Of a stretch of DNA of 64,000 bases, positions 60,853 to 62,544 are shown piece after piece. The translations under genes and the position numbers were made by a program. The notes beneath the pieces were generated by a model, which worked only from the letters and a program-made list of their open reading frames with translations, was not told the origin of the DNA and did no database searches. Position 1 is the first letter of the stretch. Every line of letters starts with the position of its first letter. Source of the DNA: a virus (taxonomy: Duplodnaviria; Caudoviricetes); the IMG/VR virus record IMGVR_UViG_3300002185_000031, positions 1 through 64,000 of that record. The stretch is one strand, 5' to 3'.

Positions 60853-60977
60853 TTGCTTAACCCCTGTATTTATCTAATTCCGATATCTAACCCGATATTG
60901 CTTGGCTGGCGCGCCAAATGTATATACAAGTCGGGTGGTGGAGGGTTTGATAAATATATATGAAAGAGGGTTTTCCT

Positions 60978-62286
60978 ATGATTACTTGCAGAACTGGCGA
61001 AACTTTCTCAAGATTCGCTTGCCCTCCTAGACGACATCGTGACGTTAGAGCCACTGCCGTTAGGAATTTTCCTGTACAATGTCAAGCACCGAAGCCAATT
61101 AGCGGTGTTCGGGTAGTCCAAGAAGCGGGTGTTCAAAACGCTTTGATTCTTGTCGGAGGCGTAGATGCTTTTATGCCAAATATGGACTACAACCTTGTGC
61201 TGTCAGAAAACGTGATTAATCCCACATCATTTAATTTCCCGGCGTATCTTTTGGTAAAGGCTGGAGATTTACACACATTGGATGTGAAAATGTCCGTTCA
61301 CACTTTTTCTGCTAATCAGCAGGGTATTATGGTAGCTTAAAAAATAGCCATAATGCTAACGGGGAAACCTAAACCTATACGGTATGGCAATCCCGTGGGA
61401 AGTCCTAATAATAGGAAACCTGTATCGACTATCCGCTTGGTAGCGGAGTAGGGTTGCTATTGATACGCAACTCGAAATGGGTGTGGTGTTGCAACTGCAA
61501 CATTAAGAGATAGTCAGTACCTATGGAAACATAGGATAAAACGGTTACTACAGCCAATTTGCAAAATCACCCAGTAACACGCTTTTTGCGTCATACTTTT
61601 GATGGCGTTAATGCTGATGACTTGTTCGAGCTTGCGCCAGATGACTTGTTGGCAGAAACTCAAACAAATCATTGCATACCACCTCGCAAGCCAGTTGTAA
61701 ACATAATTCACCCTGCATCTTTGCAAGGTAGAAGTTATGTTACTATCCGTATTGATTATTATCAATGTGGTCAGTTCATTACAGAAGAATTTTGGTGGAA
61801 TACTGCCGTCCTCAATAGTAATATTGAGGATTATGAGTGGGCAAATACGGTAAATTCTAAACCGAGGATATCGGCATGAAAATACCGTGGTAAGCAATCA
61901 GATTGCGAAAGGCTGATTGCCACTGTAGAGCGTACAGGGTGAATAAATATAATCCCTGCAAGAGTGTCCGCAGCCCTACATTCGAGGGTTAAAATGTACG
62001 CCGAACTATCCGAAAGGAATAGAAGCAAAGGATAAAAAGCCTTTGCGATAACATAATTGATATTATTCCAATCATCCGTATGGACACACAAACCCTGCGT
62101 GGTGCTGATTTGGTTAATTGGGTAGACAATGCCAACAGAGCAGTATCTCGCGTGATTATCCCTTGCGAAAGCAACGACCGCGGCGAACTTCTTATCCCAG
62201 AACCTGTTCAAAACAGATGCGGACATAGAGGATTTGTCGGCGGCGGGCATAACGGATTTAATATGATTCGTAGTGCTTGGGCGTAA
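60978..62286 (+). CDS. Three-exon hypothetical gene (60978-61283, 61544-61757, 62060-62286), predicted 248 aa
   Basis: Removing the two predicted group I introns joins ..HTLD|VTTANLQ..IRID Y|IIPIIRMDTQ.. in one frame. Confidence 0.7.
61284..61543 (+). ncRNA. Group I intron 1 (IA2/Twort-like, no homing ORF)
   Basis: P1 UGGAU/GUCCG with U-G pair and GAAA loop; P4 ACGGG/CCCGU; P7 GACUAUC/GAUAGUC; P7.1, P7.2, P8; P9 CCUAUG-GAAA-CAUAGG; P9.0 GU/AC before terminal G. Confidence 0.85.
61758..62059 (+). ncRNA. Group I intron 2 (IA-type, no homing ORF)
   Basis: P1 AUUGAUU/GGUCAGU; P10 AUAUU/AAUGU; CCUCAAUA-GUAA-UAUUGAGG hairpin; P4 ACGGUA/UACCGU; P6a GCAAUCAG/CUGAUUGC; P7 GCGUAC/GUACGC; ends GAUAACAUAAUUG. 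Confidence 0.85.
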
Positions 62287-62349
62287 AATTAATTGGAATA
62301 AGGGGGCGAGGGCAACTTTGCCCCCTCTTTTCTAAAAGGAGAGAGTAAA

Positions 62350-62544
62350 ATGACAGAAACATTATCATATAACGTGCCATGTTGCGCTATCCTAAAAGCA
62401 TTAATCCTGTCCTATGCTGATAAGCAAGCCGTTACTCTTACTAATAACGATATTGACAAAATTATATTGACTATCAATCAAGAAGGACAAGAAAAGGCTT
62501 TAGCTATCGTTAATGGGTATTTGGCTGGTTTGAAGTCTAGTTGA
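62350..62544 (+). CDS. Small hypothetical protein
   Basis: AGGAG RBS; follows a GC hairpin at about 62301-62328. Confidence 0.55.
   Translation: MTETLSYNVPCCAILKALILSYADKQAVTLTNNDIDKIILTINQEGQEKALAIVNGYLAGLKSS

Follow-up and report, generated by a model that had tools for sequence, protein, structure and literature searches.

Positions 60978-62286 on the + strand of the window, as we call the whole stretch of 64,000 nucleotides of viral DNA analysed here, very probably constitute one gene for a 261-aa protein, interrupted by two group I introns that belong to different lineages and are both predicted to excise themselves from the transcript. The window belongs to a 74.6-kb IMG/VR record with an estimated completeness of 84%, which encodes a tail sheath, a baseplate wedge, a portal, a primase and NAMPT. 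The DNA runs containing the stretch carry the label termite gut metagenome, and no RNA run was found to contain it. The source is a contractile-tailed phage of a termite-gut metagenome.

The interrupted gene and its product

Between 60960 and 62286 the + strand presents three ORF pieces of 126, 106 and 68 aa, which are divided by two spacers without a long ORF. The initial annotation had read this arrangement as one small gene with two different ORF-less group I introns, and this reading is supported by the Rfam model RF00028, by a covariance model of our own (R1), by the intron-less homologue P0003 and its locus L006, and by contigs from the same sample. The three pieces, the two structured inserts and the whole of intron 1 stand as they were first described, but the 5' site of intron 2 had to be moved.

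P0003 (257 aa) was retrieved by using exon 1 as a query for longer proteins and is 98% identical at the amino acid level across exon 1, with the same start, MITCRTG, as the gene at 60978. A search for intron-less homologues of the spliced protein had been proposed from the outset, and P0003 is such a homologue, joining all three pieces by reading through both breaks (...GDLHTLD-VTTANLQ... and ...ITEEFW-YIIPIIRMD...). In DNA alignment its gene, L006:1704-2477, falls on the window in three blocks, namely 60978-61283(85), 61544-61796 and 62060-62286. For the first break a 2-nt GT ambiguity allows three placements, of which just 61284-61543 gives both an exon-final U and an intron-final G; the second break, 61796|62060, is without ambiguity in the alignment to L006. 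Additionally, contigs from the same sample contain a second allele with the junctions 61283|61544 (260 nt skipped) and 61796|62060 (263 nt skipped), at a depth of ~44 against ~41 for the intron-bearing allele, these junction contigs being DNA alleles and not spliced RNA. The boundaries of both introns are exact, because the intron-less allele P0003/L006 and the same-sample contigs skip exactly these 260 and 263 nt.

Exon 1 (60978-61283, 102 codons) corresponds to bases 1-306 of the L006 gene and ends ...HTLD in phase 0; its ATG at 60978 is preceded at 7 nt by a Shine-Dalgarno-like AAGAGGG (60964-60970, + strand, read from the sequence). Intron 1 (61284-61543, 260 nt, + strand) is a group I intron without an ORF and has G61543 as its terminal G, and both its limits and its phase, as initially annotated, agree to the base with the L006 alignment and the same-sample contigs. 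Exon 2 (61544-61796, 253 nt) is 90.5% identical in DNA alignment to bases 307-559 of the L006 gene, and its last base is the first of a TAT codon. The remaining AT of that codon opens exon 3 (62060-62286, ...IIPIIRMD...SAWA, bases 560-774 of the L006 gene), which carries the stop codon at 62284-62286. The intervening intron 2 (61797-62059, 263 nt, + strand) is likewise a group I intron without an ORF, inserted in phase 1 and ending in G62059. Once both introns are removed, the coding sequence has 786 nt and its sole stop at the end, and the product is 261 aa long, in place of the 248 aa first calculated. Downstream of the gene, an intrinsic-terminator-like hairpin with a T run occupies 62301-62332 of the + strand (11-bp stem with 7 G-C pairs, followed by CTTTTC), and no terminator-like site was found on the + strand inside 60978-62286.

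The protein has few relatives. A library of 1.84 billion proteins contains just eight clusters of them, and a profile search added a few more; of the ~15 known sequences of the family, the other full-length intron-less homologues are 28-44% identical; a query with P0003 against viral contigs returned no related loci. Family members share N-terminal cysteines, the motifs AGVDNALFLVG, NFPxYLLxKxG, HTLxFST and ExWYIIP, and a C-terminal tail rich in glycine and aromatic residues. Searches of Pfam and PHROG with the single exons or with 12 family members gave no match. AlphaFold reached a pLDDT of 31.6 from one sequence and 42.9 from 12 sequences, and when the low-pLDDT model was compared with the PDB by Foldseek, there was no match at E <=0.001 and the TM-score was at most 0.18. 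In the ESM Atlas all matches were < 0.9, and the Atlas's own model had a pTM of 0.20. The profile yielded one row against PDB sequences, 9rks_F at E 0.061; it belongs to the phage 7-7-1 neck/terminator/sheath/tube entry (PMC12796354), and as a possible hint to function we treat it as a lead only. On the + strand the gene shares a cassette with an Fe/Mn SOD gene and a class-V aminotransferase gene (both by Pfam), and this neighbourhood is kept in relatives. The gene is followed directly by a 64-aa ORF (62350-62544) that has no family match; in the syntenic relative it is kept at the equivalent place (L125:3903-4097), and the class-V aminotransferase lies downstream of it.

Two group I introns of different lineages

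The scan with Rfam covariance models that had been suggested with the initial annotation recognised intron 1 but gave no match for intron 2. On 61299-61536 RF00028 scores 60 bits (E 1e-12; gathering cut-off 50 bits) over model positions 1-253, and a scan of the whole record returned the same match in intron 1. P1 of this intron (61280-61295, + strand) was placed by inspection, not by covariation, and consists of 6 bp with a GAAA loop, GGAU|GU-GAAA-AUGUCC, in which the pairs are G61280-C61295, G61281-C61294, A61282-T61293, T61283.G61292, G61284.T61291 and T61285-A61290. The U-G pair that had been noticed in P1 is, thus, T61283.G61292 at the splice site, and the terminal G is G61543. P7 is canonical (GACUA/UAGUC), and in the Rfam alignment a 44-nt insertion after GACUA forms two hairpins, by which the intron is IA-like, as in IA-type phage introns. 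The fold has a z-score of -4.72, with 0/200 shuffles folding as well, and the reading frame of exon 1 meets a stop 57 nt inside the intron.

For intron 2, RF00028 was silent even at E up to 10, and a permissive Rfam search of 61650-62150 returned just chance-level snoRNA and lncRNA rows. This blank carries little weight, because the control, the annotated terminase intron of phage JCL1032 (with a joined CDS), is likewise missed by RF00028; overall, the model reported 0/4 members of the intron 2 family (L001, L002, L004 and intron 2 of the window). By blastn, 61878-62063 is 70-73% identical to sequences between the pieces of split terminase, helicase, polymerase/primase and DNA polymerase genes of unrelated phages, and the P7.1 loop motif UGAAUAAAUAUAAU is found at > 110 IMG/VR loci among the matches listed.

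The structure of this family was derived from an alignment (A3) of 34 non-redundant loci, from which the window was left out. RNAalifold on A3 gave P3, P4, P5, P6, P7.1, P8, P9 and P9.1, with compensatory changes in 42/50 pairs, and P7 (GCGUA/UACGC) was added to the structure by hand. With P7 included, 98.6% of cells pair, compared with 72.3% in shuffled alignments and 30-41% when the partners are slid; both sides change in 44/55 pairs, and the covariation score of 0.709 (vs 0.196) was reached by 0/500 shuffles. Covariation extends to 6/7 pairs of P3 and 2/5 pairs of P7, the latter being paired in 100% of cells. The intron 2 family, therefore, shows P3-P9 in canonical order and a P3/P7 pseudoknot with covariation.

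R1, the covariance model of A3 and as such built without the window, matches 61834-62060 of the window (207.2 bits, E 6.3e-54), at full length and with its end at the terminal G, and the alignment to intron 2 includes just two non-standard pairs. Elsewhere R1 gives 172 bits to the JCL1032 intron, 79 bits to an intron on contig L124 and 22.8 bits to intron 1, and RF00028 gives 50 bits to the L124 intron. Since the L124 intron is recognised by both R1 and RF00028, and the JCL1032 intron also by R1, the intron 2 family is tied to canonical group I introns. Both RNAs of the window are of group I type, with a common architecture and different lineages. The early remark that the two are different holds in that RF00028 matches intron 1 alone and R1 scores 207 bits on intron 2 vs 22.8 bits on intron 1, and their P7 sequences differ, as had also been observed, with GACUA/UAGUC in intron 1 vs GCGUA/UACGC in intron 2.

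After its P7, intron 2 has one P7.1 hairpin (A3 columns 138-142 with 157-161, covarying), situated ahead of the 3' strand of P3, and the extra hairpins P7.1/P7.2 after P7 that mark subgroup IA are, thus, present in both introns. Folding of the single sequence recovers P2-P9.1 with a z-score of -4.44, and 0/200 shuffles are as good. Presumably the 3' tail, ...GAUAACAUAAUUG, resembles that of the Twort ribozyme. The frame of exon 2 runs through P3-P5 to a stop 83 nt inside intron 2, and ribosomes translating this far could interfere with the folding of the intron; a similar read-through, of 108 nt, is described for term-IVS2 (PMC2504315).

P1 of intron 2 (61793-61808, + strand), again placed by inspection, has 6 bp, an AAUA loop and the guide GCCG at 61805-61808. 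Its sequence is UGGU|GG-AAUA-CUGCCG and its pairs are T61793.G61808, G61794-C61807, G61795-C61806, T61796.G61805, G61797.T61804 and G61798-C61803. The guide GCCG is at the same position before P2 in 21/38 family members, whose exons end ...NGGT. The corrected 5' site fits this family guide, which the site at 61758 does not. Of the intron initially delimited as 61758-62059, the 3' end at G62059 is right, but the 5' site was set 39 nt too early, the true start being 61797, and the 7-bp P1 and 5-bp P10 proposed at that time were built on the wrong 5' site.

The family of intron 2 is widespread: its members come from Lactobacillus, Staphylococcus, Clostridioides and Leptolyngbya phages as well as from crAss-like phages (IMG/VR loci L012-L123; phage records L001, L002, L004 and L007-L011). 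In public records the genes with these introns often appear as 'terminase', 'helicase' or 'polymerase' in pieces, or the introns are unannotated. On several phage contigs two or three R1-type introns are only a few kb apart (three matches in L031 and L103; two in L016, L078, L100 and L112); another such contig is that of Dulem virus 41 (L011:2224-2451), in which the polymerase/primase gene is annotated as three pieces. Further, other contigs from the same sample match the conserved core alone, within 61881-62059, and then continue into unrelated sequence; therefore, further family members reside in other genes of this community.

Splicing, alternative readings and intron spread

According to the proposed mechanism, a precursor transcript would contain the introns 61284-61543 and 61797-62059, each of which would form a group I core (P3-P9) with a P3/P7 pseudoknot and a short P1 with the splice-site U.G, and would excise via two guanosine-initiated transesterifications, ending at its terminal G. 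Joining of the exons would restore ...HTLD|VTT... and ...EEFW|YIIP..., the predicted RNA junctions being ...TTGGAT|GTTACT... and ...TTTTGGT|ATATTATT..., and both splicing events would be needed for the full-length protein. Self-splicing is predicted because the two families include characterised ribozymes and the splice-site rules are intact; catalytic activity in vivo, the route of spread and a regulatory role are what we infer from these features.

The gene itself is a true coding sequence under strong purifying selection. As the initial annotation had supposed in calling it conserved, dN/dS between the 261-aa gene and the intron-less allele is as low as 0.056 (dS 0.885), a value that mostly represents divergence that may predate the insertions and that is no proof that the interrupted copy is still functional. 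In this regard, one or both of the group I introns might be inactive and this copy of the gene a pseudogene, either soon after invasion or in decay. The lack of an endonuclease would fit the late stages of a homing cycle (PMC3984707), the exon 2 frame enters the core of intron 2 by 83 nt, and in the same sample the allele without introns has about the same abundance. However, both cores are intact (R1 with 207 bits end to end; RF00028 over positions 1-253), the P1 U.G pairs and the terminal Gs are in place, and the exons have, in addition to their low dN/dS, neither a stop nor a frameshift; we consider inactivation very improbable.

Still less credit can be given to three separate small genes (126, 106 and 68 aa) divided by structured non-coding RNAs. 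Gene callers do split the pieces, with P0004 (120 aa) and P0016 (106 aa) originating from this genome's own contigs, and each piece has a possible start codon, but homologues from other genomes all join the pieces in one frame, the breaks match the covariance-model ends and the U...G rule to the base, and the separate ORFs end in read-through of intron RNA. Finally, splicing of intron 2 from 61757|61758, either invariably or as a second option (junction ...ATTGATT|ATATTATT..., 248-aa protein), would keep the frame with an exon ending in T, and cryptic 5' sites of group I introns are known (PMC10136302), but we regard it as next to impossible, given that the 13 codons removed (YYQCGQFITEEFW, before YIIPIIRMD) are present and conserved in intron-less homologues, that the guide GCCG pairs with TGGT 61793-61796 and not with ATTGATT, and that the length skipped in the DNA polymorphism is 263 and not 302 nt.

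In agreement with the initial description of both introns as endonuclease-free, neither intron has an ORF of at least 30 aa apart from the read-through and one 32-aa frame, and the ORFs in the introns (sense, >=30 aa, and antisense) gave no match to Pfam. The models HNH, HNH_3, GIY-YIG and both LAGLIDADG models had no match in the 74.6-kb record; the AP2 model had no match in it either, but its control was silent as well. Because RF00028 and R1 find no further introns in the record, the sole two introns detected in this genome are both in 60978-62286. A trans-acting endonuclease is only a possibility, and the introns could have spread by recombination with co-infecting relatives, with the help of such an endonuclease in trans, or rarely by reverse splicing, a route described as being without direct evidence (PMC3984707). 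Against the intron-less allele, dS is 0.38 in exon 2, 1.25 in exon 1 and 1.51 in exon 3, the low value of exon 2 amounting to ~4 standard errors by our own arithmetic from site counts. Gene conversion around the insertion sites would fit this pattern, and recombination unrelated to the introns fits it equally well.

Other alleles of the gene contain introns at other sites. The contig L124 (a Logan contig of SRR5247064) includes a ~35% identical homologue in which the site of intron 1 (site B, HTLD|V) and that of intron 2 (site C, EFW|Y) are uninterrupted. It has instead an intron of 269 nt at L124:255-523 (site A, after ...HEYPI; RF00028 50 bits, R1 79 bits), the removal of which restores ...YPI-VCEPPK.... 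In L125 (JGI 3300009826), the syntenic homologue P0009 is interrupted after ...STDNG (site D) by 398 nt, L125:3245-3642, with an R1 score of 115 bits; once the downstream exon is joined, the protein regains the TICVLSVP... tail that P0012 has, and the 38-aa downstream gene call is really this last exon. Taken together, four intron sites are found in ~15 known sequences, within ~0.8 kb. Additionally, P0007 (40% identity), encoded on the 6183-nt ENA contig ERZ27257345 beside a 209-aa minus-strand gene, ends with ...EIWY-ESAVLNSNI and a stop, matching the read-through of the window into intron 2, NTAVLNSNI, and its allele probably has a related intron at site C. P0015 was considered as a further split allele and rejected, as it simply ends with its contig. 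On L124, an ORF just downstream of the homologue and on the opposite strand (L124:1245-1703) scores 27.5 bits with the AP2 model, below the cut-off of 33.3, and could encode a free-standing homing endonuclease.

Transposition of R1-type introns within the gene was rejected, since the cores at the different sites are not mutual nearest relatives: the core of intron 2 is nearest to L039 (80% identity), and those in L125 (61%) and L124 (53%) take ranks 71 and 74 of 74. Judged by their cores, R1-type introns at different sites appear to have invaded independently, out of a diverse pool. A more far-reaching idea, namely that group I introns insert preferentially into this ORFan family, with at least four independent invasions by four distinct introns at four sites, is tentative and in our view rather unlikely. 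If it were true, spread independent of endonucleases would be possible, with guides (GCCG with NGGU) acting via reverse splicing, or by recombination during co-infection; alternatively, the introns might be kept as an expression gate or as a shield against the endonuclease of a competitor phage.

Repeated invasion marks the protein as strongly conserved and probably important in these termite-gut phages, with which the dN/dS of 0.056 is in keeping, and the 261-aa protein is a reasonable candidate for functional study. The intron-plus and intron-minus alleles at similar depth, combined with the low dS of exon 2, represent a natural system for exploring gain and loss of introns without an endonuclease. 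Further, the sole group I model of Rfam misses the intron 2 family, so that phage genes split by this family will routinely be mis-annotated; for the gene at 60978-62286, gene callers give separate 'hypothetical proteins' (P0004 and P0016).

Comparison with known systems

Phage group I introns are usually reported from DNA-metabolism, terminase or structural genes. The intron in the terminase large-subunit gene of Lactobacillus delbrueckii phage JCL1032 belongs to the family of intron 2 (R1 172 bits; blastn 73.5% over 183 nt) and resembles intron 2 in having a guide GCCG(U) with the exon end ...ACGGT and in lacking an ORF, but it interrupts a gene essential for packaging in a siphovirus of Lactobacillus. 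Riipinen and Alatossava are said to have described self-splicing of the JCL1032 intron in 2004. In a recent survey introns were found in core DNA-metabolism and terminase genes only, and the Rfam and GISSD models were noted to have limits (PMC11878797).

The arrangement in the window is less unusual than the initial annotation had implied, in view of Twort orf142, with three introns, and the tape-measure genes of Bacillus cereus prophages, with three sites (PMC10136302, PMC2504315). According to Landthaler and Shub 1999, as cited in PMC10136302 and PMC11878797, orf142 of Staphylococcus phage Twort is one small gene with three group I introns and is, like the gene in the window, a short phage gene without known function at discovery that harbours several group I introns; it was later found to encode the tail tube protein (PMC11878797). 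In orf142 two near-identical IA2 introns flank an exon of 23 nt and exon skipping occurs, whereas the introns of the window are of different lineages, the middle exon has 253 nt and its skipping breaks the frame.

A second likeness is to prophages of the Bacillus cereus group, in whose tape-measure and terminase genes different introns (IA1 and IA2) are inserted at several sites with strain-variable occupancy, most of them without an endonuclease gene and with related cores to which P1 and guides are adapted by site (PMC2504315). JCL1032 and Staphylococcus phage ROSA are listed as relatives of these prophage introns (PMC2504315), and introns of both either belong to the intron 2 family or are matched by it. 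Unlike in the prophages, the host gene in the window encodes a 261-aa ORFan and sits in an accessory cassette (SOD, IscS-like) instead of having a structural or packaging role.

Collaborative (trans) homing of ORF-less introns is documented for the cyanophage psbA intron with F-CphI and for T4-like phages (PMC3984707). The window has in common with these systems the ORF-less introns and a presence/absence polymorphism among co-occurring phages, but differs in that HNH, HNH_3, GIY-YIG and LAGLIDADG were not found in its 74.6-kb record. The kind of element is already known, as are multi-intron phage genes with variable occupancy (PMC10136302, PMC2504315); the novelty lies in the host gene, which is an ORFan of an accessory cassette, in how densely the intron sites are packed and in the coexistence of alleles.
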